NCBI GenBank assembly: GCA_017495115.1
Contig: JAFEIJ010000015.1
Coordinates: 73,481-137,480, forward strand
Length of the DNA: 64,000 nucleotides
Reading direction: 5' to 3'
From: Chitinophagaceae bacterium
Lineage (GTDB): Bacteria; Bacteroidota; Bacteroidia; Chitinophagales; JADJOU01
The notes under the pieces were generated by a model. The model was not told where the DNA came from and did no database searches. It saw only the letters and a list, made by a program, of their open reading frames with translations. Numbering within the stretch: the stretch's first letter is position 1; every line of letters starts with the position of its first letter. Below are positions 4,167-64,000 of this stretch, one piece after another. A program made the translations under genes and the position numbers.

Positions 4167-5135
4167 ATGTTTCGAATTATTCTTCTTATTATATTAAACC
4201 TAACGTTTGTTCTTCTAAATTTATTATTTAAAGATGGTATAAATATAATGCAAATCTATCAAAATGAAACCAATACCTTTGGATCTATTTTAGAACTGCG
4301 ATCTTTATCTATTCTTCTTGCTATTGGAGCGGGTGCGGGTTTATCGCTTGTTGGATTGTTTCTACAAACTATTTTCTCGAATCCTCTAGCTTCGCCATTT
4401 ACACTTGGCATATCTCCTATTGTATCTTTAATTGTGAGTATTTTTTTAATTTTCATTCCAACCTTAGGTTATTTTTCGATTTATTGGTTATATTTAGTTC
4501 AATTTTTAGTTTCGATGATTGCCGCATTAGGTCTACTTTTTTGGATTCAAAAAATCAATAAAAATAATGGTAATGCAACATTTATAATTTTAATTGGTGT
4601 TTTATTGGGTTCATTTTCAGGCGCGATTCAACAAATTATTGAGTTTAACCTAAGCGCCGATTTATTAAAACAAAATGCTTTATGGAATTTAGGGAATTTT
4701 CAAGCTTTTGCGCTTTGGATTCCAATTGCCGTTTTGTTTATCATCATTATTTGTTCCATATTTTTAAAAAAAATGACATATCAAGCCAATATTTTTTTAC
4801 TAGGAATACAATATGCTCGAAATTTAGGATTGGATACAAATCAATTTATAAAAATTATTATTTTTATTTCTTCAATAATTACTTCTGTTATTACAATTAC
4901 ATGCGGACCTATTGGATTTATTGGACTAATGGCACCTCATATATCTAAAATTTGGCTCAAATCTAATAATCATAAAGTTGTTTTTCTGCCTACTTTATTA
5001 ATTGGAATTTTCTTTTGCCTTTTTGCTTTATGGACAAGTCAACTTGAATTTTGGAATGGCTCTTTATCAATAAATATTGTTTTGAGCATTATTGGCGTGC
5101 CATTCACACTTTTTTTACTTTTAAAAAGAAATTAA
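4167..5135 (+). CDS. FecCD/BtuC-family ABC transporter permease (iron-chelate/cobalamin type)
   Basis: The 322-aa protein is polytopic, with the FecCD-like segments GAGLSLVGLFLQTIFSNPLASPFTLGIS and GPIGFIGLMAPHI. Confidence 0.7.
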   Translation: MFRIILLIILNLTFVLLNLLFKDGINIMQIYQNETNTFGSILELRSLSILLAIGAGAGLSLVGLFLQTIFSNPLASPFTLGISPIVSLIVSIFLIFIPTLGYFSIYWLYLVQFLVSMIAALGLLFWIQKINKNNGNATFIILIGVLLGSFSGAIQQIIEFNLSADLLKQNALWNLGNFQAFALWIPIAVLFIIIICSIFLKKMTYQANIFLLGIQYARNLGLDTNQFIKIIIFISSIITSVITITCGPIGFIGLMAPHISKIWLKSNNHKVVFLPTLLIGIFFCLFALWTSQLEFWNGSLSINIVLSIIGVPFTLFLLLKRN

Positions 5136-22536: not shown

Positions 22537-25500
22537 ATGAAGCATAAATTATTATTTTTAATTTTATTTTTCACAAATTGTATTTATTCTCAATTCGATA
22601 ATTTGAAAAATAATTCGAATGAACTTGAAGCAAAATATATTAAAAATCAGCTTTTTGTTAAAATTAAAGACGAAATTGATTTTAACCCAATAAACTCGAT
22701 CGAGCCCCGCGAATTTTCAAATAAAATAAAAATAACCAAGGCCTTTAAACTGATCGAATTACAAAAAATATATTTAGTTGAAGTGCTCGATTCATCAATT
22801 ACTACAGATTCGGTTATTCGATTTTTCACAAAAAATGAAGCTGTAGAATATGTAGAACGCGTTCCGCTATACGAGTTATTTTGGACGCCCAATGACCCTA
22901 TGTATTTGCAACAGTGGAATTTACAAAAAATTCAAGCCGATTTAGCGTGGAACATATCGCAAGGTAAACAGCAAATTCGAGTTGCAATTACGGATGATGG
23001 TTTTTTAATGAATCATGAAGATTTGACCAGCAAGTGGTTTATTAATAGTGCCGAAAATCCGACAAACGGAATTGATGATGATAATAACGGATATATTGAT
23101 GATTGGAGAGGTTGGGATGCGGCAGATAATGACAATAATCCAGCGGCGTTTAATCCAAGTAATAATTATTTTGACCATGGCACCCATGTAGCCGGAATTA
23201 CAACCGTTGCAACAAATAATGCAAAAGGTATCGCTGGAATTGGTGGAAACATCCTTTTGATTCCTGTGAAAATTGGGGCTAATTCAAATGCTTCATTTAC
23301 AGGAGCGTATCAAGGTGTGGAATATGCTATTATTGCCAATGCCAATGTCATCAATATGAGCTGGGGCGGAGGTGCCTTTTCTCAGACATATCAGAATTTA
23401 TTTAATGTAGCAAAGTCAAAAAATATTGTTTGTGTAGCGGCTGCAGGTAATAGCTCAACAAGTTCCTGGATGTATCCAGCCTCTTATCAAAATGTAATTA
23501 GTGTAGCGTCTACAACCAATACGGATGCTTTATCATGGTTTAGTAATTTTGGTAGTGCAATTGATGTTTGCGCGCCAGGTTCCGACATATTAAGTTGCCA
23601 CGCAACAGGCATTACTAATTATACCAATATGTCTGGTACGTCTATGGCAGCGCCATTGGTCTCTGGTCTTTGTGGATTAATGTTGAGTCATAACTTGATG
23701 CCCGCAGATTCTATAGAAGCATGTCTTAAACGAACAAGCAACAACATAAATGCGAATAATCCTAACCGAATTGGGCAAATCGGAGCTGGCCGAATTAATG
23801 CATTTCAGGCATTGCAATGCGTTACTAAAAATCCAATTTCTAGTTTTGATATTCTAGATACGTTTCAATGTTCTGGTCAATTGGTTCGATATCAAGCTAC
23901 AAGCAATGGCGCACAACCCCTAACCTATCAATGGATTTTCCCTGGAGGCTCTCCGAGCACTTCTACATTTGCAAATCCTGGGGTAATATACAGTTCAGCT
24001 GGTCTCAAGTCGGCGACTTTAATTACATGTAATACCCTTGGTTGTGATACCATAACAAAAACAAATATCGTTCGAATTGATACGCCATCGGCTTGGCTTA
24101 CGGGTAGAAAATACACGACTTATAATTCAAATCCTGCAGTAATTGCAGTCAATTTTAAAGGAAATCCACCATATAACGTAACACTTACCGACGGAACAAA
24201 CACTTGGACTGAAAATAATATCACAGCAAACCCCTATTTTTTCTCTATTGTGCCTCAACTAAACACAAGTCTCATTTCTATACAAAGTTTTTCTGCTAAA
24301 AATTGTATAGGAAAGGTTTCAAAACAAGATACTATTGAGAAAAATGATTTGAATGCGGTAACGATGCGGGATACTTGTATTTTTTTAAATAATTTTCCAA
24401 TGGTAGTTGAAGATGCCGGAATTTCGTCATTTACTCCTAACACAAACTACGCTTTACATCCAGAATATGGAGCCCTTTCTTGGACTTGTGGAGGTAGTCC
24501 TTGTCAAGGTAGATCTTTAATGAAATTCAATTTAAATGAAATCCCTCAAAATGCTATTATTAATGATGCCACCTTATACTTAACAGCGGAAAACCCTTCA
24601 AATGGTTATTCCAATCAACCCACTTTTGGCACCAATAATGCGTCTGCTATAAAAAGAATAACTCAATCTTGGTCAGAAAATACCGTAACGTGGAATAATC
24701 AACCTACAACAACTACATTAAATCAAGTCACGCTTCCACAAAGTTCTTCATCAAAACAAAATTATGTGGTTAATATGACCCAATTAATAAATGACAGTAG
24801 AGCCAATCCAAATAACAGTCATGGCTTCATGCTACAACATCTAGCCGAACCAACTTGGTATAATTGTATGTTATTTGCTAGTACTGATTTTGTGGATATA
24901 AGCAAAAGACCAAAATTAAAAATTTGTTATTCGTATCCTATTCAAAACAATAATGATAACAATTGCGACACCACCAATTTAAATGTTGGCAGGGTTTTAC
25001 ATTTGGATTTTAATGGTAATACGCAAGATAAAAGTGGCAATAATAATCACGCCACCAATTTTGGAGCCACTCCAGTAGCAGGTAAAAATGGTGTTGCAAA
25101 TACCGCATATCGTTTTGACGGTATTAATGATTATATGAAAGTTAATCATCATACGAGCTTAAATATGACGAATATTACTTTAACTGCTGTTCTTAAACCC
25201 AATGGATTTTATAATGGAACTTGCTATGGTAATCAAATTATAAAAAAAGGCAATACTGATTTTGTATCTGGTGAATATGGTCTTGTATATAGTCCAAATG
25301 GTTACACAAACTCATGTTTTGTATTCGACACCATACATCAAAATTATGCAGGCTATGTATTTAATAATAGACCAAGTCCAAATTTAAACAATACGAGTCC
25401 TTATGTAATTAAAGGGCAATGGGATTGTTTAGTTTATACAAAAAACAATGACTCCACTAAATTTTATATAAATGGTGTACTAAAATATGCAACCGCCTCA

Positions 25501-28356
25501 AACAGTCACGGGAGCAATTTAGATGATATTTTTATAGGAAAATTGAATAATTGGCAATATCCTTATTGGCTTAATGCCGACATCGATGATATTCGAATCT
25601 ACAATCGCGTGCTTTCCGCTTTAGAAGTTAAAGGCTATTGTGGTTCTTGTAACATTTCAAGTCCTATTGAAAAGGCTTGTTCAAAAGGATTTAAACAAAC
25701 AATCCCAAAATGTACTCAAGAAACATTGATATTAAACAGTTCGAATGGAACAAAACACCTTTGGTCTCCAAAATTAGGTCTTTCAAACGATACCAATCAA
25801 AATCCAATCTGTTCTATAAATCAAAATACGACGTATTATTCAACCAAAATCGATAGTGTGGGCTGTCAAATTGTAGATACATTTATCATTCAAATACGTG
25901 CCGTTTCAAAATTTGAGCCTATTTCTGATACACTGATTTGTATCGGTGATAGCGCTACCATTAATATTAAAAACCGAACGAATCCCATCTGGTCTCCAAA
26001 CACCCATATCCGAGCATTTGGAACAAATGATTTTAAACTCTTTCCTAATCAATCGACGGATTATATATTAAATTATCAGGATACGTTTGGTTGCTCATTT
26101 AAAGATACAATTTCTATAAAAACCAAAATTTGTTGTTCTTTGCGTGCGCAATTTGAAATGAGTAAAACGAATTTATGTTTTGGAGATTCTTTAATGGTCA
26201 ATAATAGCTCTTCATCCATTTCAGGCGTTTCTTTTAGTTGGTCTATCCAACCCAATTCGGTTTCTATGGCAAACTATAACGGTATTCAACCGCCTACCTT
26301 ATTTTTTGAAAATGCGGGAGATTATACCATCGAACTTATTGGCGATAATGGATCTTGTAAAGATACCTTTGTAAAAACAATCTTAGTTACTAAACTCAAT
26401 CCTAATGCGGGAAATGATACCTTCTATTGTGGCAATGCATTGCAATATCAACTTGGAGAAAGTCCAATTAGAGGATTTAAATATTCATGGAATCCTCCAA
26501 CGGGATTAAATAATCCATCCCAATCCAACCCCATATTGTCGCTTGCAAATCAAAAAATAGATTACATTTTACAAATGGAAGATACGTTAAGTGGTTGTCG
26601 TTTTTACGACACGGTCACAGTAAGCGCTTTTAATTTTAAAAATTTCTCAAAAATTATCGATACGCTGATATGTGATCGCGATAGTATAATGGTTTTGCTT
26701 CCAAGTTTCACCAAATCAGCCACATGGAAAAATGCAATACATATTTCGGATTCGTTATCAAAACAACCTTTACTTTTCCCTAAAGATACACAAAGGTATA
26801 TTGTTCATTTTGAAGACTCCAATCGTTGTCAATATCAAGATACTTTTGATCTCTTTACTAAAATTTGTTGTGAACATATCCCCCATTTTTTAGTTGCTAA
26901 AAACACGATTTGTTTTGGAGAAACACTACAAATTACTGAAAATTCCACCTATAAAACGCCCGTTAATCACAAATGGAAGGTTATACCAAATACGGTATCT
27001 CCTAGTTTTTCATCTGGAAAAACACCGCCAAACTTCCAATTTTTAGATTCAGGAAAATATCAAATTTGGCTCACTATTTATGATTCTTATTGTATAGATT
27101 CCTTTTTACGCGAAGTTAAGGTAGTTCGTATTTATCCAAATGCAGGATTGGATCAATCTTCATGTCGATTACAAAATAATTTTTCATTAGGTTTCCCTCC
27201 AGTAGATGGCTATCAATATGTATGGACACCAAGTCTTTATTTATCCAATCCTTTTATTTCCAATCCAACGGCGTCAGTTTTCCGAGACTCTATTAGATAT
27301 ATTCTTGAAACAAGAGATATTGCTAGTCAATGTGTCTTTAATTATGCGGTAGATATTAAAACGAAAAGAGTAATTGACTCTTCCATTACTTTCGATACCC
27401 TTTGTGAGAAATCAACACTTGATTTTCATGGCAATATACTCAATGCTTCAGGATTCTATGACACCATACTTTCGGATGTATTAAATACCTGTGATAGTAT
27501 ATATAAAGCAACTCATTTATTCATTTATCCAAGAAAAGATTCGTTGTGGACGCAACAATATGGTTGCAAATACTTCCAATATAAAAATACCGTTTTTGAA
27601 AAAGATACGTTTTTATTAGACTCAATTTTTAATTCCAAAGGTTGTTTGGTTTCTATTTTACAAATTCCAATAGAAATTTTAAATACAACTATAGAAGATT
27701 CAACAATTATTGCATGTGGAAGTTATCTTCATAATGGACTTTTATTAACCGAAAGTTATAAACGAATTAAAACGAATCGTGTTCCTTTTTTCAGAAGACC
27801 TACTTGTGATAGTGTTTGGCGAAATATTGGACTTAACATATTACCCGCTCCTAAAGCAATCATAGAACCCAACAATAAAAACAATCCAATTCCTTACGGA
27901 ACCAAATTGAATTTGGAGGGTAAGGGCGGTGATTTTTATCAATGGAATTTTGAGAACAGTACCGAAAAAAGTATTGTATATGAGGCGTTTCAAGACTACA
28001 GATTTACGTTAGTAGTGAGTCTTCAAAATGAATGTAAAGACACTGCAACATACTTTGTAAAAGTGGGCGAGATTCCTGATGGTAAAATCGTATTTCCAAA
28101 TGCATTTTCGCCTAATGGCGATCAAGTAAATGATTACTTTAAACCCAATTCCTATCAATTTGGGGCACTGGTTTCATTAAGCATTTTCAATCGTTGGGGC
28201 GAGAAAATATTTGAAAATTTCAATCAAGATGCGTATTGGGATGGAACATACAAAAATGAAATTCAACCGAGTGGAGTTTATATTTATATCGCTACATTTA
28301 AATCGCCTAAAGGGGAGTTAAAAACGATAAAAGGAGACTTTTTATTGGTTAGATAA
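22537..28356 (+). CDS. 1939-aa secreted multidomain subtilisin-like (S8) protease/adhesin with a T9SS type-B C-terminal sorting domain
   Basis: It has a signal peptide and an intact S8 triad context (ITDDG, DHGTHVAG, SGTSMAAP). PKD-like modules, a TWNNQP-containing beta-sandwich and a LamG/ConA-like domain follow. Cys-rich repeated modules come next, and the C-terminus is PNAFSPNGDQVNDYF...FNRWGEKIF...WDGTY...GVYIY. Confidence 0.9.
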   Translation: MKHKLLFLILFFTNCIYSQFDNLKNNSNELEAKYIKNQLFVKIKDEIDFNPINSIEPREFSNKIKITKAFKLIELQKIYLVEVLDSSITTDSVIRFFTKNEAVEYVERVPLYELFWTPNDPMYLQQWNLQKIQADLAWNISQGKQQIRVAITDDGFLMNHEDLTSKWFINSAENPTNGIDDDNNGYIDDWRGWDAADNDNNPAAFNPSNNYFDHGTHVAGITTVATNNAKGIAGIGGNILLIPVKIGANSNASFTGAYQGVEYAIIANANVINMSWGGGAFSQTYQNLFNVAKSKNIVCVAAAGNSSTSSWMYPASYQNVISVASTTNTDALSWFSNFGSAIDVCAPGSDILSCHATGITNYTNMSGTSMAAPLVSGLCGLMLSHNLMPADSIEACLKRTSNNINANNPNRIGQIGAGRINAFQALQCVTKNPISSFDILDTFQCSGQLVRYQATSNGAQPLTYQWIFPGGSPSTSTFANPGVIYSSAGLKSATLITCNTLGCDTITKTNIVRIDTPSAWLTGRKYTTYNSNPAVIAVNFKGNPPYNVTLTDGTNTWTENNITANPYFFSIVPQLNTSLISIQSFSAKNCIGKVSKQDTIEKNDLNAVTMRDTCIFLNNFPMVVEDAGISSFTPNTNYALHPEYGALSWTCGGSPCQGRSLMKFNLNEIPQNAIINDATLYLTAENPSNGYSNQPTFGTNNASAIKRITQSWSENTVTWNNQPTTTTLNQVTLPQSSSSKQNYVVNMTQLINDSRANPNNSHGFMLQHLAEPTWYNCMLFASTDFVDISKRPKLKICYSYPIQNNNDNNCDTTNLNVGRVLHLDFNGNTQDKSGNNNHATNFGATPVAGKNGVANTAYRFDGINDYMKVNHHTSLNMTNITLTAVLKPNGFYNGTCYGNQIIKKGNTDFVSGEYGLVYSPNGYTNSCFVFDTIHQNYAGYVFNNRPSPNLNNTSPYVIKGQWDCLVYTKNNDSTKFYINGVLKYATASNSHGSNLDDIFIGKLNNWQYPYWLNADIDDIRIYNRVLSALEVKGYCGSCNISSPIEKACSKGFKQTIPKCTQETLILNSSNGTKHLWSPKLGLSNDTNQNPICSINQNTTYYSTKIDSVGCQIVDTFIIQIRAVSKFEPISDTLICIGDSATINIKNRTNPIWSPNTHIRAFGTNDFKLFPNQSTDYILNYQDTFGCSFKDTISIKTKICCSLRAQFEMSKTNLCFGDSLMVNNSSSSISGVSFSWSIQPNSVSMANYNGIQPPTLFFENAGDYTIELIGDNGSCKDTFVKTILVTKLNPNAGNDTFYCGNALQYQLGESPIRGFKYSWNPPTGLNNPSQSNPILSLANQKIDYILQMEDTLSGCRFYDTVTVSAFNFKNFSKIIDTLICDRDSIMVLLPSFTKSATWKNAIHISDSLSKQPLLFPKDTQRYIVHFEDSNRCQYQDTFDLFTKICCEHIPHFLVAKNTICFGETLQITENSTYKTPVNHKWKVIPNTVSPSFSSGKTPPNFQFLDSGKYQIWLTIYDSYCIDSFLREVKVVRIYPNAGLDQSSCRLQNNFSLGFPPVDGYQYVWTPSLYLSNPFISNPTASVFRDSIRYILETRDIASQCVFNYAVDIKTKRVIDSSITFDTLCEKSTLDFHGNILNASGFYDTILSDVLNTCDSIYKATHLFIYPRKDSLWTQQYGCKYFQYKNTVFEKDTFLLDSIFNSKGCLVSILQIPIEILNTTIEDSTIIACGSYLHNGLLLTESYKRIKTNRVPFFRRPTCDSVWRNIGLNILPAPKAIIEPNNKNNPIPYGTKLNLEGKGGDFYQWNFENSTEKSIVYEAFQDYRFTLVVSLQNECKDTATYFVKVGEIPDGKIVFPNAFSPNGDQVNDYFKPNSYQFGALVSLSIFNRWGEKIFENFNQDAYWDGTYKNEIQPSGVYIYIATFKSPKGELKTIKGDFLLVR
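22894..23820 (+). other. peptidase S8 (subtilisin) catalytic domain of the giant protein
   Basis: This covers aa ~120-428, with Asp in ITDDG, His in DHGTHVAG, Asn in AAAGNSS and Ser in GTSMAAP. There is an Asp/Asn-rich insert, NGIDDDNNGYIDDW. Confidence 0.85.
23830..24081 (+). other. PKD-like domain
   Basis: This covers aa ~432-515: F..C.G..V.Y...SNG..PLTYQW.FPGGSP..S....P.V.Y...G......L...N..GCD. Confidence 0.6.
24979..25632 (+). other. LamG / concanavalin-A-like lectin domain
   Basis: This covers aa ~815-1032: LHLDFNGNTQDKSGNNNHATNFGATPVAGKNGVANTAYRFDG...KFYINGVL...DDIRIYNRVLSALEV. Confidence 0.7.
25669..27366 (+). repeat. about 2.3 tandem copies of a ~245-aa Cys-containing module inside the giant ORF (protein-level repeat)
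   Basis: The motif string recurs: ...W.P...L.N....NP...Y......D..GC...DT..I.TKICC then F.....N.CFG..L.......W.......G..PP...F...G.Y.I.L......C.D.F...... then PNAG.D. Anchors are TKICC at aa 1196-1200 and 1441-1445, and PNAG at aa 1288 and 1533. Confidence 0.6.
28084..28353 (+). other. T9SS type-B (gliding-motility-associated, CHU_C-like) C-terminal sorting domain
   Basis: The last ~90 aa read IVFPNAFSPNGDQVNDYFKP...SIFNRWGEKIFE...WDGTYKNEIQPSGVYIYIATF...GDFLLVR. Confidence 0.8.
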
Positions 28357-28420
28357 TCACAAATGTTATAAAATTATGAGCATATTATCAAAAAGATTGG
28401 GTCTCATTGTTTCTAATTTT

Positions 28421-28482
28421 GAGACCACGGATAAATTTTTCAAAGTGAACTAGCTATTCAGGAAAAATTTTCCGAGGTGACG
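28421..28482 (+). repeat. hairpin module A1
   Basis: GAGACCA CGGATAAATTTTTC [loop AAAGTGAACTAGCTATTCA] GGAAAAATTTTCCG AGGTGACG. The stem is 13 bp with one bulged T. Confidence 0.85.
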
Positions 28483-28566
28483 ACATATGTGAATTCCAAC
28501 TCTTCGTACCCGTTCCCGAATTCCCGAATCGTGCCTCTCTGGACAGTCGCAGGATCTCGGGATAGG

Positions 28567-28643
28567 CGTCATCCTCGAAAATTTTCAGCAACAATATTTT
28601 TATTAATATACTAAATCTTTTTTGAAAATTTATCGGGGATCTC
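28567..28643 (-). repeat. hairpin module D1 (A-type design in reverse orientation)
   Basis: CGTCATCCTCGAAAATTTTCA ...loop... TGAAAATTTATCGGGGATCTC. Compare the reverse complement of A: CGTCACCTCGGAAAATTTTTCC...GAAAAATTTATCCGTGGTCTC. Confidence 0.8.
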
Positions 28644-28660
28644 ATTGTTTCGCTTCAGAG

Positions 28661-28718
28661 ATTCCGCATATTTTTTTTATAAGCTGACTAGATAGTCAAA
28701 AAAAATTGCGGAATGACG
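28661..28718 (+). repeat. hairpin module B1
   Basis: ATTCCGCATATTTTTTTT [loop ATAAGCTGACTAGATAGTC] AAAAAAAATTGCGGAAT GACG. Confidence 0.85.
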
Positions 28719-28791
28719 AAGTGGTTATAAGCAATCCTTTCAAATCACTAATAACTAAAACCTAAAGTCTAATCCCTTTTAAAAGCTTTTT

Positions 28792-28853
28792 GAGACCACG
28801 GATAAATTTTTCAAAGTGGACTAGCTATTCAGGAAAAATTTTCCGAGGTGACG
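28792..28853 (+). repeat. hairpin module A2
   Basis: Same as A1 with one loop change (AAAGTGGACTAGC). Confidence 0.85.
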
Positions 28854-28906
28854 GGAGTCCCGAGATGAAGGATTCGGGAACGTAATATATGTGAATTCCA
28901 ATATCA

Positions 28907-28981
28907 CGTCATCCTCGAAAATTTTCAGCAACTAAATGTTTTTTCTCTTGAAATTATAATTGAAAATTTATCGGGGATCTC
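28907..28981 (-). repeat. hairpin module D2
   Basis: CGTCATCCTCGAAAATTTTCAGCAAC...TTGAAAATTTATCGGGGATCTC. It ends 10 nt from the GIY-YIG stop codon. Confidence 0.8.
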
Positions 28982-28991
28982 TTTAGAAAAT

Positions 28992-29291
28992 TTATAAATC
29001 TACAACTTGATTTATTAAATCAATCCAATCTTTGTTATATTTTTCTACAAGTTGCATCTTCCATTCACGTTTCCATTTTTTAAGTTGTTTCTCTCTTGAA
29101 ATAGCTTCTTCGATACTTATAAATGATTCAAAATAAACTAATTTATTACAATTATATTTTGAAGTAAATGAAGTAGGATATATTTTATCTTTATGTTCCA
29201 TAACTCTAAAATATAGTTGACTTGTAACTCCAATATAAAAAACGGAATTTAATTTATTTGTCATTATATAAACATAGCCCCCACGCTCCAT
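28992..29291 (-). CDS. stand-alone GIY-YIG (URI-domain) nuclease family protein, COG2827/YhbQ-like
   Basis: The 99-aa protein reads MERGGYVYIMTN...VFYIGVTSQLYFRVMEHK...SFTSKYNCNKLVYFE...EEAISREKQLKKW. This gives the GIY and YIG motifs, a conserved Arg and a conserved Glu. Confidence 0.9.
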   Translation of the reverse strand: MERGGYVYIMTNKLNSVFYIGVTSQLYFRVMEHKDKIYPTSFTSKYNCNKLVYFESFISIEEAISREKQLKKWKREWKMQLVEKYNKDWIDLINQVVDL

Positions 29292-29295
29292 TGTA

Positions 29296-29303
29296 CAAAT
29301 ATA
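29296..29303 (-). promoter_or_regulatory. candidate -7 box (TATATTTG) only 4 nt upstream of the GIY-YIG ATG
   Basis: The reverse complement of 29296-29303 is TATATTTG. If functional, it implies a leaderless or near-leaderless mRNA. Confidence 0.3.
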
Positions 29304-29313
29304 CTAATTATAT

Positions 29314-29375
29314 GAGACCACGGATAAATTTTTCAAAGTGAACTAACTATTCAGGAAAAATTTTCCGAGGCGACG
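29314..29375 (+). repeat. hairpin module A3
   Basis: GAGACCACGGATAAATTTTTCAAAGTGAACTAACTATTCAGGAAAAATTTTCCGAGGCGACG. It starts 22 nt from the GIY-YIG start codon. Confidence 0.85.
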
Positions 29376-29399
29376 GGAGATGGTGTCAGCACTTTAGAG

Positions 29400-29455
29400 A
29401 TTCCGCATATTTTTTTGTAAGCGTACTAGATTGTCAAAAAAAATGCGGAATGACG
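29400..29455 (+). repeat. hairpin module B (unit 3)
   Basis: ATTCCGCATATTTTTTT [GTAAGCGTACTAGATTGTC] AAAAAAAATGCGGAAT GACG. Confidence 0.85.
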
Positions 29456-29542
29456 AGGTGGTTATAACCAAGCCCTTCAAATCACTAATCACAAGTCACT
29501 AATCACTAAAACCTAAAGCCTAATCCCTTTTAAAAGCTTTTT

Positions 29543-29604
29543 GAGACCACGGATAAATTTTTCAAAGTGAACTAACTATTCAAGAAAAATTTTCCGAGGT
29601 GACG
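29543..29604 (+). repeat. hairpin module A4
   Basis: Same design as A1. The loop ends ...CTATTCAA. Confidence 0.85.
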
Positions 29605-29628
29605 GGAGATGGTGTCAGCACTTTAGAG

Positions 29629-29681
29629 ATTCCGCATATTTTTTAATAAGCAGACTAAATGGTCAAAAAAAATTGCGGAAT
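29629..29681 (+). repeat. hairpin module B (unit 4)
   Basis: ATTCCGCATATTTTTT [AATAAGCAGACTAAATGGTC] AAAAAAAATTGCGGAAT. Confidence 0.85.
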
Positions 29682-29798
29682 GCTTTAAGTCCCGAGACGA
29701 AGGATTCGGGAACGCAACGATTATGAATCCCTTCAAATCACTAATCACAGGTCACTAATCACTAAAACCTAAAGCCTAATCCCTTTTAAAAGCTTTTT

Positions 29799-29860
29799 GA
29801 GACCACGGATAAATTTTTCAAAGTGAACTAACTATTCAAGAAAAATTTTCCGAGGTGACG
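29799..29860 (+). repeat. hairpin module A5
   Basis: Identical to A4. Confidence 0.85.
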
Positions 29861-29884
29861 GGAGATGGTGTCAGCACTTTAGAG

Positions 29885-29937
29885 ATTCCGCATATTTTTT
29901 AATAAGCAGACTAAATGGTCAAAAAAAATTGCGGAAT
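29885..29937 (+). repeat. hairpin module B (unit 5)
   Basis: Identical to the unit-4 copy. Confidence 0.85.
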
Positions 29938-30054
29938 GCTTTAAGTCCCGAGACGAAGGATTCGGGAACGCAACGATTATGAATCCCTTCAAATCACTAA
30001 TCACAGATCACTAATCACTAAAACCCAATCCCTAATCCCTTTTAAAAGTTTTTT

Positions 30055-30113
30055 GAGACCACGGATAAATTTTTCAAAGTGCACTAACTAATCAAGAAAA
30101 ATTTTCCGAGGTG
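30055..30113 (+). repeat. hairpin module A6 (terminal, slightly diverged)
   Basis: GAGACCACGGATAAATTTTTCAAAGTGCACTAACTAATCAAGAAAAATTTTCCGAGGTGA. Confidence 0.8.
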
Positions 30114-30175
30114 AAGAGGCGTCTTAAAATATTCATTACCTTAAAAAAAATGTCCTATTTTGATCGATTTAGTTC

Positions 30176-30183
30176 TATATTTG
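30176..30183 (+). promoter_or_regulatory. candidate -7 box (TAnnTTTG)
   Basis: TATATTTG lies 21 nt upstream of the ATG at 30205. The extended context TATATTTGCTTT matches the one upstream of the protease gene at 22500. Confidence 0.4.
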
Positions 30184-30204
30184 CTTTTAATAAATTGCTA
30201 AAAC

Positions 30205-32601
30205 ATGAATTTAAATCAACTTAAAGGGCTTTTACCTTATTTTGGAATACTTATTATTTTCTCATGCTTTATTTTTTTTCCTGAAATACAAGGGAAAAAA
30301 CTAGGAAGTCACGACTCAGTGAGTTGGTATGGAGCAGGAAAAGAATTATTAGATTATCAAGGAAAAGGAGAAAATATCAAGTGGACAAATCGTGTTTTCT
30401 CAGGAATGCCCTTGTACACTATAGGTGGAGAATTTAATGGCAACCCATTTTTTAAATACTATTATAAAATCACACAAATACTTCCATTAAATATTACATT
30501 GATGTTTTTATTAACTGTTACGATTTTCTTTTCTTTTCTTTTAATAAATATAGATAAAAGAATTTCTTTGATATCTGCTTTAGTTTTAGGAGTTAATACA
30601 TGGATTATAGATTCTTTAGTAGCTTCTCACGGAACTAAAATTTTAGCTTTAGTTTTTTTATTTCCTATTATCAGTGGATTAATAGCCTTTTATAAAAAAA
30701 ACAAATTAAATGGATTGGTAGGCATTGGAATCGGACTACTTTGTCAAATAGGAATCAATCACCTTCAAATCACATATTATGGTGCTATAGTATGCGGAAT
30801 TATAGGTATATACCTTTTTTATGATGCAATCAAAACCAAACAAATAATAACATTTTTAAAAAAATCAATTTTAGTAATTGTTGTTGTTGCTCTAGCTATT
30901 TTAGCCAATTATTCTTATTTATGGATTCTAAAAGATTACAGCAAAGATACCATGCGCGGTGGTAAAACCGAATTGATCAAACCTGAAGCGAATAGTACTG
31001 GAAAGGAAGGCGGTTTAGACATCAATTATGCATTTAGTTGGAGTTATACACCAACCGAATTATTTAATTTTATTGTCGCAGATGCAAAAGGCGGCGCAAG
31101 TGGCTACAAAGTGAATCCATCAAAATCCAAATTAGCTCAAGCGATAGGACAAGATAAAATACCTATGTATTGGGGCGAACAACCTTTTACGGGTGCTCCT
31201 AATTATATAGGCGTTGTATTAATTTTCTTAGCTATTTTCACCTTATTTTATTGGAAAAATAATTTACGTTGGCCGTTTTTAATTCTTATTGGTTTATTTT
31301 CTGCAATGGGACTCGGTCGTTTCTTCCTTGAATGGAATCAAATTTTGTTTGATTATTTGCCATTTTATAATAAATTTAGAACACCTACGATGTCTTTCTC
31401 TATTGTGAGTATGAGTTTTATATTTCTTTCAGGTTTGGGCTTAAATCACCTAATTTCAAATAAGGAAAATACAAAAGATGTTTTAATCGCATTAAAATAT
31501 TCGTTATACACCATTATGGGTTTTATGATTTTAGGTTTTATAACCATACAAAATGAAGGTTTCACCTCCTCTTCAGACACACAAGTCTTTGGTCAAAACG
31601 TTCAAGCGCTTCAATTGATTATCGAAGACCGAGCCAGTTTCTTTAAAAGTGATTTTATAAGAAGTTTATTTTTGATTGCATTAGCTGCAGGTCTGATTTG
31701 GGGATATATTACTCAAAAAATAAGCCAACGAATTTTTATTATTATATTGGGCGTTGTAATGGTTGGTGAACTCTTTTTAGTAAGCAATCGTTTTTATGAT
31801 CGGGAAGCCTTTACAAAAACCCAAAAAGTTGAAGATTTAGTTCCGAATGAACCATATAATCAATATATGATGGGCGATACCACCCATTTTAGAATGGTCA
31901 ATACCACCACCAATGTATTTAATGACAATACCGATGGATACAGATATAGCAATGTGGGAGGCTATTCACCTGCCAAGCTCTATAGATATCAAGATTTAAT
32001 TGACGTGCATTTGAGCAAGATGAATATCAATGTACTTAATATGCTCAATACGAAATATTTTGTAGTGGACCAAGGTGGTCAAAAGGTCGTGCAGCAGAAT
32101 CCAGACGCTTGTGGTAATGTATGGTTTCCTACCCAAGTTAAATTTGCTAAAAATGCCAATGAAGAAATGGATTCTATTGGAACTTCCAATCCTAAAGAAA
32201 AAGTATGGGTCGATCAACGATATCAAAGTGAATCTAAATTTGATGCCAATACCGATCCCAATGCAACCATATATTTATCTAAATACCATCCCGAAAAAAT
32301 GGAATACCAATCTCAAAGTACTTCGGGAGGTTTTGCTACATTCAGCGAAATATGGTATCGTGGCAATGAAGATTGGAAAATTTTCATCGATGGAAAGGAA
32401 AGTAAAATGATACGCACCAATTATGTTTTGAGAGGTACCTATATTCCTGCAGGGAATCACAAAATAGAAATGCGATTTGAGCAACCTAAACTTGATTTAT
32501 TAATCAAAGTTGGACAAGTTGCAACCTTGATATTATTATTGCTTGTCTTTATACTTCCATTTGCTCAAAAGCGATTGATTAAAGTTAAACATGAACAATA
32601 A
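30205..32601 (+). CDS. YfhO-family polytopic membrane protein (GT-C-type glycosyltransferase candidate)
   Basis: The 798-aa protein has about 12 N-terminal TM helices, a soluble C-terminal domain and a final TM helix. The N-terminal region (GKKLGSHDSVSWYGAGKELLDYQGKGENIKWTNRVFSGMPLY) has the pattern of Bacteroidota YfhO homologues. Confidence 0.6.
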   Translation: MNLNQLKGLLPYFGILIIFSCFIFFPEIQGKKLGSHDSVSWYGAGKELLDYQGKGENIKWTNRVFSGMPLYTIGGEFNGNPFFKYYYKITQILPLNITLMFLLTVTIFFSFLLINIDKRISLISALVLGVNTWIIDSLVASHGTKILALVFLFPIISGLIAFYKKNKLNGLVGIGIGLLCQIGINHLQITYYGAIVCGIIGIYLFYDAIKTKQIITFLKKSILVIVVVALAILANYSYLWILKDYSKDTMRGGKTELIKPEANSTGKEGGLDINYAFSWSYTPTELFNFIVADAKGGASGYKVNPSKSKLAQAIGQDKIPMYWGEQPFTGAPNYIGVVLIFLAIFTLFYWKNNLRWPFLILIGLFSAMGLGRFFLEWNQILFDYLPFYNKFRTPTMSFSIVSMSFIFLSGLGLNHLISNKENTKDVLIALKYSLYTIMGFMILGFITIQNEGFTSSSDTQVFGQNVQALQLIIEDRASFFKSDFIRSLFLIALAAGLIWGYITQKISQRIFIIILGVVMVGELFLVSNRFYDREAFTKTQKVEDLVPNEPYNQYMMGDTTHFRMVNTTTNVFNDNTDGYRYSNVGGYSPAKLYRYQDLIDVHLSKMNINVLNMLNTKYFVVDQGGQKVVQQNPDACGNVWFPTQVKFAKNANEEMDSIGTSNPKEKVWVDQRYQSESKFDANTDPNATIYLSKYHPEKMEYQSQSTSGGFATFSEIWYRGNEDWKIFIDGKESKMIRTNYVLRGTYIPAGNHKIEMRFEQPKLDLLIKVGQVATLILLLLVFILPFAQKRLIKVKHEQ

Positions 32602-41621: not shown

Positions 41622-42401
41622 TTAATTCCAAATTTTCCATGGAGCCTTACCATTATTCCATAACTCTTCAAGCTCAATTTTATCACGCATGGCATCCATA
41701 CATTTCCAAAATCCATAATGCTTGTATGTAGCTAATTCTCCAGATTTAGTAATATCAATTAATGGACCTTTCTCAAATTGAATTTCATCCATATTTCCGT
41801 CTAAAAAATTAAATACAGAGGGTTCTAAAACCATAAAGCCGCCATTAATCCATACGCCATCATCCTCAGGTTTTTCTACAAATCTTAACACATTTCCATT
41901 GTCATCAATATCTAAATTTCCAAATTTACCCGGTAATTGAATAGACGTTAAAGTAGCTACTTTACCTTTGGATTGATGAAAAGCCAATAATTCTTTAATA
42001 TTGATATCTGAAACACCATCACCATAAGTCAACAAAAAAGATTCATTTCCAATATATTTTTGAATTCTTTTTAAACGACCCGCCGTATTGGTTTCAAACC
42101 CAGTGTCCACTAAAGTTACTTTGAAATTTTCTTGCGTGGGCTGGTGAACGGTCGTTTCATTTTTTGATAAATCAATAGTAATATCTGAATTGGTAAAATA
42201 ATAATTCATGAAATATTCTTTGATCATAGCTTGTTTATACCCCAAACAAACGATAAACTCATTAAACCCTTGAGCCTCATATATTTTCATAATATGCCAC
42301 AAAATGGGCTTGCCACCAATTTCAACCATAGGTTTTGGTCGCGCCTCGGTTTCTTCCATCAAACGAGTACCTAATCCACCTGCAAATATTACAACTTTCA
42401 T
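41622..42401 (-). CDS. rfbF: glucose-1-phosphate cytidylyltransferase
   Basis: MKVVIFAGGLGTRL.EET..RPKPMVEIGGKPILWHIMK.Y...G...F..CLGYK; 259 aa. Confidence 0.9.
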   Translation of the reverse strand: MKVVIFAGGLGTRLMEETEARPKPMVEIGGKPILWHIMKIYEAQGFNEFIVCLGYKQAMIKEYFMNYYFTNSDITIDLSKNETTVHQPTQENFKVTLVDTGFETNTAGRLKRIQKYIGNESFLLTYGDGVSDINIKELLAFHQSKGKVATLTSIQLPGKFGNLDIDDNGNVLRFVEKPEDDGVWINGGFMVLEPSVFNFLDGNMDEIQFEKGPLIDITKSGELATYKHYGFWKCMDAMRDKIELEELWNNGKAPWKIWN

Positions 42402-43426
42402 ATAAATTTAGATTTTGGTTTTGCTACTAAAATAATATAACTACTCATAAAATTACCTAAATAGCCCACTTTAGAAATAACAAAATTAAGACACTTAGAA
42501 CTAAAACACGCTAATCGAAATGAATAATCCTCATCCCAAATCCCTGGCTTGATATCAACATCATAATCTTTAGCTAAACGTTTATGCGTTTGATAAGGCA
42601 ATAAATTTTCACCCCAAACACCATATTCATTACAAATATTGGTATAATTACTTGGGAATTGAGTTTTAATTTTATTTTTTAAATAATCTTCCATGGCTTC
42701 GTCCAATTTAGGGCCACCAGCAGTAGCTATATTCCCAATTGCTTTATCTATATCATTTGAATCTTTTAGATTATATTTTTTCGTTAAAAATTCTTTTTTA
42801 GCTTCAATGATTTTACTTCGATTCTTTAAATGTATATACACGTGCTGCATATGCGCGAAAGGATTATTCCAATTTGCAGTAGTACTACTTACAATAATTG
42901 CATTTGGATAATTAGTCGAAATGTCGTGATAATAGTTTTCTAAATCATAAATATGCTCAATGACATTTCTACTCATCACTATATCCAGTTCATAACCTTT
43001 TTCGCGCATTTGTTTGAAAGTAATATCTGAATCTCCAACGATATAATCATCCATTTTGACACCGAAAATAGTATCTATTTCCATTGCCATTTGAGCAAAT
43101 TTCGCATCGTAATCATTATAAAACACTTGCTTACAACCTATCATTTTGGCCAAAACATATAAAGAACCAACACCCGCTCCATAATCTATTAAAGATACTT
43201 CATAATAGGGCTTACCAGATATTTTTATGGCATCATATAGCAATTTTGCACTGGTTTTAAGCGAAAAAAATGGTCGCTCGGTATGACATTTTTTAAAATA
43301 CCATTTATAAAATGGATCAATATCCAATGCTTCTACATCCGTATTTGCTATTAAATGAAAAATTTCATTGCATTTTTCATTTATAATTTTTGATAATTCA
43401 TCTTTAATTTTAATAAATTCCTTCAT
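42398..43426 (-). CDS. class I SAM-dependent methyltransferase
   Basis: LIDYGAGVGSLYVLAKMIG (motif I), FYNDYD and DIVMSRNVIEHIYD. Confidence 0.6.
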   Translation of the reverse strand: MKEFIKIKDELSKIINEKCNEIFHLIANTDVEALDIDPFYKWYFKKCHTERPFFSLKTSAKLLYDAIKISGKPYYEVSLIDYGAGVGSLYVLAKMIGCKQVFYNDYDAKFAQMAMEIDTIFGVKMDDYIVGDSDITFKQMREKGYELDIVMSRNVIEHIYDLENYYHDISTNYPNAIIVSSTTANWNNPFAHMQHVYIHLKNRSKIIEAKKEFLTKKYNLKDSNDIDKAIGNIATAGGPKLDEAMEDYLKNKIKTQFPSNYTNICNEYGVWGENLLPYQTHKRLAKDYDVDIKPGIWDEDYSFRLACFSSKCLNFVISKVGYLGNFMSSYIILVAKPKSKFI

Positions 43427-43496
43427 CCTCTACCCTTTTCTAATTAAACTAACTACCTCGATGGCTTTTTTGCTTTCGGCGATGCGAGAACCATTA
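43427..43496 (-). pseudogene. orphan 22-codon 3'-terminal fragment of a Gfo/Idh/MocA oxidoreductase gene (left copy of the 81-bp direct repeat)
   Basis: The reverse strand reads AAT GGT TCT CGC ATC GCC GAA AGC AAA AAA GCC ATC GAG GTA GTT AGT TTA ATT AGA AAA GGG TAG, which is NGSRIAESKKAIEVVSLIRKG*. The intact gene end at 44174-44240 reads NGFRIAESKKAIEVVSLIRKG*. Confidence 0.85.
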
Positions 43497-43575
43497 TTTT
43501 TAAAAACATATTGATATCTATTTGACTTCATTTTCTCACTTTTCTACTTAGCAAATTTATTAAATTTAATCTATT

Positions 43576-43881
43576 CTATACGAATTCATTTTTATACTCC
43601 CCTATTGGTATACTTATTTCAAAACATAACTCAGGGGAAATGTCATAATTCCATATACTCCCATTTGGATATTCTATGAGACCTTCCCAAAACAATTCTC
43701 CCATTTCTCCAATCTGCACTTTTTTAAATAAATCTATATCTAATAATTTCTTAAGTGATTCAAATTGAATTAAATCTTTTTGAATAATTGGTAAAAAGTC
43801 CAAAACTTTTTGGTCTAAATTATTGAACACCAATTTCAATTTATAATCTTCAAAATAAGATACTTGAATCACTTTTTTCAT
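43576..43881 (-). CDS. DUF2442-family small protein
   Basis: This 101-aa protein sits immediately downstream of a DUF4160 gene, which is the usual pairing. The pattern V..V....DYKL.L.F.N......DF is consistent with the family. Confidence 0.6.
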   Translation of the reverse strand: MKKVIQVSYFEDYKLKLVFNNLDQKVLDFLPIIQKDLIQFESLKKLLDIDLFKKVQIGEMGELFWEGLIEYPNGSIWNYDISPELCFEISIPIGEYKNEFV

Positions 43882-43885
43882 TATT

Positions 43886-44134
43886 TTAAGTTAAAGGAGT
43901 TATTTTACTAAAATTTTTGGTATCCCACATTTTTAATAGTTCATTTTTGTGGATTTCAGCCCAAGCTTGAACTAATTTATGTTTACTAATTGGAAGGTCT
44001 CCATTCAAAATTTGACCATTTTCAATTAAGATATTTGCTTCAAATTCACCATATTTTACTTTAAAATGAGGAGGATTATGATCATTAAAGAACATATAAA
44101 CAATAATTCCATAAAATCTGCTTATCTCTGGCAT
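43886..44134 (-). CDS. DUF4160-family small protein
   Basis: MPEISRFYGIIVYMFFNDHNPPHFKVKYGEFEA matches the hallmark N-terminus of DUF4160 (ISRFYGI...NDH.PPHFH..YGE). Confidence 0.8.
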   Translation of the reverse strand: MPEISRFYGIIVYMFFNDHNPPHFKVKYGEFEANILIENGQILNGDLPISKHKLVQAWAEIHKNELLKMWDTKNFSKITPLT

Positions 44135-44173
44135 TATTTTTTTATTTTAAACTAATTTTAATTCCTTCATCCT

Positions 44174-45070
44174 CTACCCTTTTCTAATTAAACTAACCAC
44201 TTCAATCGCTTTTTTGCTTTCGGCGATGCGGAAACCATTACCAGCTAAAATTTCTTTATAACTATCGGTATGTAATTCCGTAAATCCATCCGAAAACTCA
44301 ATTTCTTCGCCTTCCATTTGGAGTGTGCGATACGTTCTTTTTCCTGCATCGCGCACCGCTTGAGGTATGCGCATATAATCGATACTCAACAACCATTCTA
44401 CTCGAGCTCTTTGAAGATGTAATCTGCCGGAAGCCGTTTCATCTGATTGTTCAATAACTTTATTCTCAACAATATCACCAAAAATCCATGTCAGCATATC
44501 AAAAAAATGGACTCCGATGTTCGTAGCAATGCCACCCGATTTTTTAGCATCCCCTTTCCAACTATGATGATACCATTTGCCTCGTGAGGTCATATATTGA
44601 AGCTTGATATCAAACACATGATCGGCAGGTGCGTTTGCTACGCGCTCTTTTAGCGCTATAATACTCGGATGTAATCGCAATTGAAGAATTGTGTAGGCAT
44701 TTTTACCCGTTTCTTTTTCCATTTCTACTAAAGCGTCTACATTCCATGGATTTAAAACGAGTGGTTTTTCGCAAATCACATCACAACCGCTGCGAAGCCC
44801 AAAACGAATATGCGCATCGTGCAAATAATTAGGACTACAAATACTAATGATATCAATAGGATTTCCTTCGCGTTTTAACTTATCGATATGTCGATCAAAT
44901 CGCTCAAATTCGGTAAAAAAATCGGCATCCGGAAAATAACTATCCATAATTCCCACGCCATCATAAGGATCATACGCACACACCAATTCATGCCCTAAAT
45001 CTTTAATGGCTTTCATATGTCTTGGAGCGATATAACCCGCTGCACCAATTAACGCAAATCGTTTTTTCAT
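44174..45070 (-). CDS. Gfo/Idh/MocA-family NAD(P)-dependent oxidoreductase (sugar-nucleotide dehydrogenase type)
   Basis: FALIGAAGYIAPRHMKAI Rossmann start, then ICSPNYLH..H.......G..V.CEKP. Confidence 0.85.
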   Translation of the reverse strand: MKKRFALIGAAGYIAPRHMKAIKDLGHELVCAYDPYDGVGIMDSYFPDADFFTEFERFDRHIDKLKREGNPIDIISICSPNYLHDAHIRFGLRSGCDVICEKPLVLNPWNVDALVEMEKETGKNAYTILQLRLHPSIIALKERVANAPADHVFDIKLQYMTSRGKWYHHSWKGDAKKSGGIATNIGVHFFDMLTWIFGDIVENKVIEQSDETASGRLHLQRARVEWLLSIDYMRIPQAVRDAGKRTYRTLQMEGEEIEFSDGFTELHTDSYKEILAGNGFRIAESKKAIEVVSLIRKG

Positions 45071-45368: not shown

Positions 45369-46748
<1,380 letters not shown>

Positions 46749-60610: not shown

Positions 60611-60685
60611 TGGGCTCTACTGGATTCGAACCAGTGACCCTCTGCTTGTAAGGCAGATGCTCTGAACCAGCTGAGCTAAGAACCC
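60611..60685 (-). tRNA. tRNA-Val (anticodon TAC)
   Basis: The reverse complement is GGGTTCTTAGCTCAGCTGGTTCAGAGCATCTGCCTTACAAGCAGAGGGTCACTGGTTCGAATCCAGTAGAGCCCA. It has a 7-bp acceptor stem, the D-loop AGCTCAGCTGG, the anticodon loop CTTACAA and the T-loop GGTTCGAATCC. No CCA is encoded. Confidence 0.9.
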
Positions 60686-63944: not shown

Positions 63945-64000
63945 TGGAGGCGACAGGAGTCGAACCTGCGACCCTCTGCGTGCAAGGCAGATGCTCTAGC
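63945..64000 (-). tRNA. tRNA-Ala (anticodon TGC), 5' part cut by the window edge
   Basis: The reverse complement is ...GCTAGAGCATCTGCCTTGCACGCAGAGGGTCGCAGGTTCGACTCCTGTCGCCTCCA. The anticodon loop is CTTGCAC and the T-loop is GGTTCGACTCC. Confidence 0.85.

Follow-up and report, generated by a model that had tools for sequence, protein, structure and literature searches.

Toxin-antitoxin modules on bacterial chromosomes have a patchy distribution and are clearly mobile, and their carrier-free movement is poorly understood. Streptococcal cis-mobilizable elements (CIMEs) are integrase-less elements flanked by att sites, the core of which is recognised by the integrase of an integrative and conjugative element (ICE). 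In Campbell-type integration (single-crossover or "ends-in"), e.g., of suicide plasmids, the homology segment comes to lie on both sides of the inserted DNA and its two copies are chimeras of donor and recipient. Insertion with a long duplication of the target has been described for restriction-modification complexes (Nobusato et al. 2000, Gene 259:99; Furuta, Abe and Kobayashi 2010, PMC2853133; PMC3874152), in which the flanking repeats are host-derived, variable and longer than 30 bp, mobility genes are lacking, an empty site exists and the mechanism is unknown (PMC2853133, PMC3874152). The literature searched attributes such duplications to restriction-modification systems, and none was found credited to a toxin-antitoxin pair. 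Here we describe an 81-nt direct repeat that encloses a 663-bp cassette of a DUF4160 gene and a DUF2442-type gene in a 64,000-nt (64 kb) stretch of the Chitinophagaceae bacterium contig JAFEIJ010000015.1 (the "window", to whose positions all coordinates refer unless a locus is named). We interpret this repeat as the probable footprint of an insertion of the toxin-antitoxin cassette with a long target duplication, exchanged between lineages by homologous recombination.

The cassette resembles the restriction-modification complexes in being a small addiction-type module, and its family likewise possesses repeats that differ by locus and often overlap the 3' end of a host gene. It differs from them in its cargo, a putative type II toxin-antitoxin pair, and in the evidence presented below for a foreign functional allele in one of the repeat copies and for passage between lineages at a single junction. 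All genes around the cassette are on the minus strand. The locus is composed as follows:

45369-46721, minus strand: glutamate dehydrogenase gene, the first in gene order, before the oxidoreductase gene
44174-45070, minus strand: intact gene of a WbpB-like Gfo/Idh/MocA oxidoreductase of 298 amino acids (Pfam PF01408, PF02894)
44160-44240, minus strand: right-hand (upstream) copy of the repeat, the functional one
44135-44159, minus strand: cassette leader of 25 nt
43886-44134, minus strand: DUF4160 gene of a putative, DhiT-like toxin of 82 amino acids (PF13711, NF048015)
43576-43881, minus strand: gene of a putative, divergent DUF2442-type antitoxin of 101 amino acids (PF10387, below threshold)
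43497-43575, minus strand: cassette 3' region of 79 nt
43430-43531, minus strand: mini-ORF (open reading frame) of 33 codons (translation MKSNRYQYVFKNNGSRIAESKKAIEVVSLIRKG, then stop)
43416-43496, minus strand: left-hand (downstream) copy of the repeat, a pseudo-copy of the oxidoreductase tail
42398-43426, minus strand: methyltransferase-like gene, 342 amino acids (weak Pfam match)

Alignment and local blastn (E = 6e-29) bear out the repeat as it was first noticed in a preliminary description of the window: the two copies are gap-free direct repeats, identical at 75 of 81 positions. Their exact core of 38 nt occurs twice in the window and in none of 100 shuffles, and the only other direct repeats of such kind in the 64 kb are a tandem array and two tRNA genes. 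Each copy is composed of the last 21 oxidoreductase codons plus 1 nt (not 22 codons, as was initially stated), followed by the TAG stop, an AGG spacer and ATGAAGGAATT, which had been correctly recognised. As likewise described before, the right copy holds the real end of the oxidoreductase gene, to which 11 nt (ATGAAGGAATT) are attached as a relic of how the next gene starts, and in the left copy a pseudo-tail of the oxidoreductase is followed by the AGG-ATG context in which the methyltransferase-like gene really starts (43426). Because the junction sequence is doubled, neither the C-terminus of the oxidoreductase nor the native start context of the downstream gene is lost; both genes are intact despite the cassette, at a site that is a seam of 3 nt in the empty state. 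The duplication would thus let a selfish cassette enter between coupled genes of a polysaccharide operon and break neither. The 663 bp between the copies contain two ORFs only, the DUF4160 gene and the ORF of 101 amino acids, and the DUF2442 label that had been given to the latter is below threshold in Pfam. The same arrangement recurs in independent assemblies (L001, L002, L005 and L006) and is therefore not an assembly artefact.

A cassette-free junction, for which a check of relatives had been suggested, is present in the closest ones. Proteins 97% identical to the oxidoreductase are encoded on seven contigs (L007-L013) which keep the upstream gene order of the window, and at all seven places the stop codon of the oxidoreductase gene, an AGG and the ATG of a homologue of the downstream gene (339 amino acids) follow each other without a cassette. 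The junction reads TAGAGGATGAAGGAATTT and occurs once in these relatives and twice in the window. Nucleotide identity between these contigs and the window is 98.4% in the glutamate dehydrogenase gene, 95.9% in the oxidoreductase gene and 95.6% in the downstream gene, so that the closest relatives of the window are empty. At the amino acid level, the methyltransferase-like gene is 90% identical to its counterpart in the empty-site relatives, which there lies immediately next to the oxidoreductase gene. Compared with the criteria by which Furuta et al. (2010) recognised long target duplications, the insert is a complete module far below 20 kb (663 bp) with no other mobility gene found, its repeat is longer than 30 bp (81 nt), the empty site is contiguous (L007-L013), and in terms of dispersal the repeat has two copies within the 64-kb window.

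Two further lineages are occupied at the same junction, namely L021 and a lineage here called K (L014-L020). In L021, the operon behind cassette and repeat is a different one, and in K it is an operon for cytidine diphosphate (CDP)-sugar synthesis that is 77-81% identical to that of the window. The junction between cassette and pseudo-tail on the downstream side (..AAAAAT/AATGG) is identical in the window, L021 and K. The flanking repeat of K spans 84 nt, and in the comparison of the upstream junctions it is 4 nt longer than that of the window. The mini-ORF comprises 12 cassette-side codons plus the pseudo-tail and stops 3 nt before the ATG of the next gene; it is intact in all occupied lineages and was called as a gene of 33 amino acids in L014-L017, and it could possibly serve translational coupling.

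Homologues of the oxidoreductase carry the JGI name UDP-N-acetyl-2-amino-2-deoxyglucuronate dehydrogenase, and relatives at 82% identity sit within Wzy/Wzx-type loci; the surface-polysaccharide locus is variable, and the gene and its junction with the next one lie at its conserved edge. The label "methyltransferase" of the next gene comes from a weak, sub-threshold Pfam match. Downstream of it follow genes of the CDP-sugar type (nucleotidyltransferase, 4,6-dehydratase, 3,5-epimerase-like, C-methyltransferase).

The six differences between the repeat copies are those listed in the preliminary description, i.e., four synonymous changes at third codon positions (GCG/GCC, ATT/ATC, GAA/GAG and GTG/GTA) and the codon change TTC/TCT (F to S), the latter at a position where F or Y is conserved in 120 of the 120 oxidoreductase homologues inspected. 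The variant sites of the window pseudo-copy are synonymous third-codon sites that are polymorphic among the real oxidoreductase tails of related lineages, which agrees with the earlier proposal that the left copy stems from a functional orthologue. The pseudo-copy hence looks like the functional allele of another lineage, not like a fragment decaying in place, and we interpret the mainly synonymous differences of the repeat as a consequence of this. The repeat copies co-vary by lineage. Among close strains of lineage K, the pseudo-copy is the same as the strain's own functional copy in some and not in others, which suggests ongoing conversion between the copies within a genome.

The cassette is younger than its surroundings. 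Between the window and L021, identity over all positions is 99.2% in the cassette, 87.3% in the oxidoreductase gene and 91.3% in the downstream methyltransferase-like gene, and at third codon positions 98-99% in the cassette and 68% in the oxidoreductase gene. The tract of high identity extends from 44194, in the conserved 3' part of the upstream copy, to 43489, at the start of the downstream copy. Compared with lineage K, the identities over all positions are about 90% for the cassette, 86% for the oxidoreductase gene and 76% for the downstream gene; the cassette is a mosaic against K, with one tract of 180 columns that contains 3 differences. These unequal identities of cassette and flanks imply that the cassette was exchanged between the lineages after their divergence. 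The locus thereby provides a clean and reconstructable case, with an empty site, three occupied lineages, a cassette younger than its flanks and a pseudo-copy that apparently records a foreign allele.

A purely local history would start with a tandem duplication of the junction, between the copies of which the cassette landed, and the left copy would subsequently have drifted, all of this without any exchange between lineages. Tandem duplications are common, the F to S change in the pseudo-copy fits relaxed constraint, and the T/Y' junction at locus L099 (described below) is also readable as a tandem-duplication joint. Such a history is nevertheless already disfavoured and in our view very unlikely, given that the synonymous third-position differences fall on sites polymorphic among functional alleles, that cassette and flanks are of unequal age and that the closest relative is empty.

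The same comparisons bear on the first of two options raised in the preliminary description, that the repeat is the recombination joint of an imported CDP-sugar operon with the cassette as a passenger. Indeed, the window and its closest relative have different downstream operons, the end of the oxidoreductase gene is marked by a decrease in GC content (0.39 to about 0.30), and from ~44,813 leftwards the window is ~4-6% diverged, compared to ~1.6% in the upstream core genes. The cassette may plausibly have arrived within a large import, the joints of which nonetheless lie away from the repeat: relative to the closest relative, the breakpoints lie at ~42,520 and inside the oxidoreductase gene (~44,813), and the methyltransferase-like gene beside the repeat is 95.6% identical in the empty-site relative. 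Moreover, the same cassette and repeat stand before another operon in L021 and before a CDP-sugar operon of 77-81% identity in K, and an operon swap by homologous recombination makes no duplication. The operon joint is accordingly improbable and was not upheld. The second option, a small cassette which travels with homology and sits at a conserved gene junction, fits the identities of 99.2% in the cassette and 87-91% in the flanks, so that the initial interpretation is supported in this part.

Two traces of further recombination are seen in the comparison with L007. Homology to this contig ends at ~42,400-42,520, in the final ~40 codons of the methyltransferase-like gene, and different sugar operons follow beyond, which places a locus-swap breakpoint inside the gene. 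Within the oxidoreductase gene and the zone of raised divergence that starts there, a patch at 44414-44546 is ~15% diverged from the otherwise 96-98% identical L007 and looks like a small recombination import.

The duplication of host gene ends is not confined to the window. Other cassettes of the family were surveyed for it, as the preliminary description had suggested, at 80 loci each from species-representative genomes and metagenomes, with DUF4160 relatives 47-88% identical to the window toxin; flanking direct repeats were scored at E < 1e-6 and shifted positions served as the control. Flanking repeats were present at 14 of 74 genome loci and 14 of 60 metagenome loci, together 28 of 134 chromosomal cassettes, compared with 4 of 176 shifted control positions (combined excess, Fisher p = 6.6e-8); in viral contigs the number was 1 of 71. 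The repeats measure 21-132 nt, are host-derived and have another sequence at every locus, across phyla. Many of them represent ends of host genes such as uvrA, PPK2, prfC and trpB. The inserts are 0.5-1.3 kb long and have no conserved termini. The survey suggests that the same signature accompanies about one fifth of the chromosomal DUF4160 cassettes in several phyla, and it links toxin-antitoxin modules to the long target duplication known from restriction-modification systems.

A few of the flanking repeats are based on hairpin elements and are not clean target duplications, because these elements are present in more than two copies. At L029, L049, L118 (Paludibacter-type) and L043 the "flanking repeats" are hairpin- or terminator-like, with a third copy inside or beside the insert, and may be dispersed repeats rather than target duplications. 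In L084 (691-2016) the repeat-flanked insert (72 nt, 93%) contains two pairs in tandem, DUF4160/DUF2442 and RelB-like/ParE-like.

The excess of synonymous differences holds in the larger sample. Codon positions were counted at ten independent loci with a clear long host ORF, which were curated by hand since automated frame calling gave some spurious frames; the differences between the repeat copies are distributed over codon positions 1, 2 and 3 as 9, 11 and 39, i.e., 39 of 59 are at third positions (p = 2.7e-7). In L099 (6 of 6), L025 and L130 they are purely synonymous.

Locus L099 also provides a second empty site. In comparison with L102 and L103, where the PPK2 tail is single, the outer flanks of the two L099 copies are contiguous. 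The L099 insert starts with ~20 nt (TTAGAGTCTCACGAA..) which in the empty-site relative are found ~65 nt past the other side of the target. The coordinates of this sequence are:

L099, 3913-3938 and 2598-2624
L102, 115-142 (reverse complement)

An extra 1.1 kb with DUF2752 and DUF4190 genes lies in L099 directly after the original copy of the TTAGAGTCTCACGAA.. sequence. A structured RNA gene was considered as a hot spot beside the L099 target and dismissed, as there was no Rfam match.

Homologous recombination between diverged lineages, by means of the repeat and the flanking genes, is in our view the most likely route of the cassette. It may have proceeded as a Campbell-type integration of a donor fragment composed of cassette and junction homology, or alternatively as a replacement between already occupied alleles. 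A single crossover between the chromosome and a circular or homology-cut donor fragment would yield the observed topology. In the L099 insert, the host sequence that stems from across the target would be the junction expected of a circularised donor fragment, and for the window cassette the predicted circle or tandem junction would read ..TTTTTAAAAAT-AATGG..GGAATT-AAAATTAG... Gene conversion between the two copies within a genome could modify the repeats afterwards. The cassette differs from the classical Campbell-type cases in that no circle, replicon or vector is known for it and that its homology segment is only ~80 nt long. Such a mechanism becomes testable with defined DNA substrates.

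Several observations weigh against the insertion and exchange of the cassette as we propose it. All comparison sequences for the window locus are metagenome assemblies, and L021 is a Logan (k = 31) contig, found in two samples, in which a strain chimera at the 38-nt block is conceivable. Window and L021 have cassettes that are 99% identical, yet their pseudo-copies disagree at 8 of ~42 positions, so that a single shared transfer of "cassette plus arm" would be insufficient and either extra conversion or a crossover at the cassette edge is needed. Window and K agree in the downstream junction, but the upstream one has other filler and, in K, a longer repeat; the junctions may stem from a single origin with subsequent conversion or may have formed independently. 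In L024, L034 and L035, which look older, the differences between the copies are a mixture of synonymous and non-synonymous ones, as decay in place predicts. A circular or excised form of the cassette was not observed. Finally, the recombination model would account for the allelic pseudo-copies and for the spread at one junction, and the first insertion would be outside its reach. For primary insertions a filled-in staggered break is conceivable, as has been mooted for restriction-modification systems.

Extended to the window itself, a transposition-like process of this kind would involve a staggered double-strand break, in which a host enzyme or the toxin sets nicks separated by tens of bases, and fill-in after ligation of the cassette, which would leave copies that are initially identical and derived from the recipient. 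DNA breakage has been suggested by the authors on restriction-modification complexes (PMC2853133), and host-derived repeats of variable length (21-132 nt) across phyla in the lack of mobility genes would be expected from it, as would those repeats which are 100% identical (L043, 75/75; L086, 36/36; L120, 26/26). However, the downstream junction common to three lineages argues against independent insertions, and the synonymous-only pattern (window, L099 with 6 of 6, L025 and L130) points to an allelic origin of the pseudo-copies. Likewise, the L099 insert carries a host flank that stems from across the target, which speaks against this process, and the toxin model has no significant match to a nuclease-like fold. 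We therefore regard it as unlikely for the window repeat.

No integrase or transposase was found in the insert or among the genes annotated in the ~8-13 kb to its left and right, and no terminal inverted repeats were found at the ends of the insert. This bears on a further possibility, that the locus is the CIME-like remnant of a site-specific integrative element whose integrase targeted the 3' end of the oxidoreductase gene, with the copies as attL and attR, and which has since been reduced. The cassette shares with CIMEs the short, recombinase-less element between direct repeats which include the 3' end of a host gene, and integrative elements often carry the 3' end of their target gene, which results in imperfect direct repeats of this size. 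In the surveyed locus L035, the duplicated target (3822-3892 and 4535-4605) belongs to a gene fragment of a tyrosine recombinase (Phage_integrase), of which it forms the C-terminal end, and this could be taken in favour of such an origin. By contrast, besides the lack of an integrase, all three occupied lineages hold just the two genes, and the repeats at the other loci are unrelated, at unrelated targets and without a common core, unlike att sites. A reduced integrative element is thus highly improbable.

Other known elements were considered and rejected. A transposon or insertion sequence does not agree with the lack of terminal inverted repeats, with a duplication of 81 nt (not <15 bp) and with the lack of a transposase. 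For an integron cassette, no integrase is present in the annotated genes ~8-13 kb on either side, and the sole inverted repeat close to the 3' end (I3, 16 nt) runs across the repeat copy and does not close the cassette. For a diversity-generating retroelement, no reverse-transcriptase domain was found in the annotated neighbours, and the differences between the copies are mixed, not adenine-specific.

The cassette apparently represents a type II toxin-antitoxin pair, the activity of which we infer from homology to dhiTA. The latter is listed as a DUF4160/DUF2442 type II toxin-antitoxin system in Dickeya dadantii 3937 (PMC8198452), DUF4160/DUF2442 pairs are also known from Thermus plasmids (PMC12724237), and the two genes have been described as typically coupled, the fold of the effector domain being unknown (PMC12065111). 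Growth inhibition by the toxin and its neutralisation by the partner are known from the literature on homologues (PMC8198452, PMC12724237). The window cassette is similar in its arrangement, a DUF4160 gene with a DUF2442-type gene a few bases behind on the same strand. Its DUF4160 protein matches Pfam PF13711 with 76.7 bits (gathering score 23) over profile positions 1-64 of 65, and NCBIfam NF048015 (toxin_DhiT) with 91.9 bits (E = 2.8e-26). As the latter score is under the equivalog cut-off of 100, we file the protein as DhiT-like and not as a DhiT equivalog. The structure model of the toxin is confident (predicted local distance difference test, pLDDT, 94.8) and yielded no significant fold match in the PDB. 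The putative antitoxin ORF lies on the strand of the toxin gene, from which a 4-nt spacer separates it, and reaches 17.9 bits with DUF2442 (PF10387), below the gathering score of 23.9. It is 38% identical (E = 1e-17) to the partner ORF in L024, which passes DUF2442 at 27.9 bits. The cassette accordingly differs from dhiTA in a toxin under the equivalog cut-off and an antitoxin below the Pfam threshold, and it is known here from sequence. The antitoxin diverges much faster than the toxin, as between the window and L024 (4249-4536) it is 38% identical, compared with 88% for the toxin.

In a search for copies of the cassette elsewhere, proteins at 98-100% identity were all found at the same junction, and the next relatives are 88% identical or less. 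The DUF4160 family is present on phages and plasmids at just 36-52% identity to the window toxin; phages and plasmids were rejected as carriers on account of this low identity and of viral copies lacking flanking repeats (1 of 71).

The 25-nt leader lacks the TAnnTTTG promoter motif that is present in the leaders of most other cassettes (leaders were read by eye), which suggests that the cassette is probably co-transcribed with the operon. No terminator-like site was found in the cassette region. A reading of the leader as decayed codons 5-19 of the downstream gene was abandoned after local alignment against shuffles (p = 0.42 for the window and 0.09 for K). Upstream of the left copy, 16-18 of 36 positions agree in register with a possible longer, decayed oxidoreductase tail (null fraction 0.02-0.06), which we take as a hint only.

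A more far-reaching idea is that DUF4160/DUF2442 pairs are autonomous mobile units which enter chromosomes with long, variable target duplications, that toxin activity or the stress of antitoxin loss promotes or selects them, and that the repeats allow loop-out, amplification and re-entry. We consider this rather doubtful at present; if true, it would constitute a general route of toxin-antitoxin mobility that needs no carrier element.

Some features of the window stand apart from the cassette. The ORF of the dehydratase (384 amino acids) overlaps the preceding gene by 95 nt (41622-41716), and its homologue in K was called at 352 amino acids, so that the true start is probably further downstream. 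The intergenic region at 28417-30237, between an ORF of 1939 amino acids (22537-28356) and an ORF starting at 30205, contains an array of 5-6 copies of a ~256-nt unit with a conserved core of 73 nt (86-93% identical). Two and a half of these units are 97% identical in tandem, and the array has no Rfam match. Two tRNA genes are located on the minus strand at 60611-60685 and 63945-64000, the latter cut by the end of the window.

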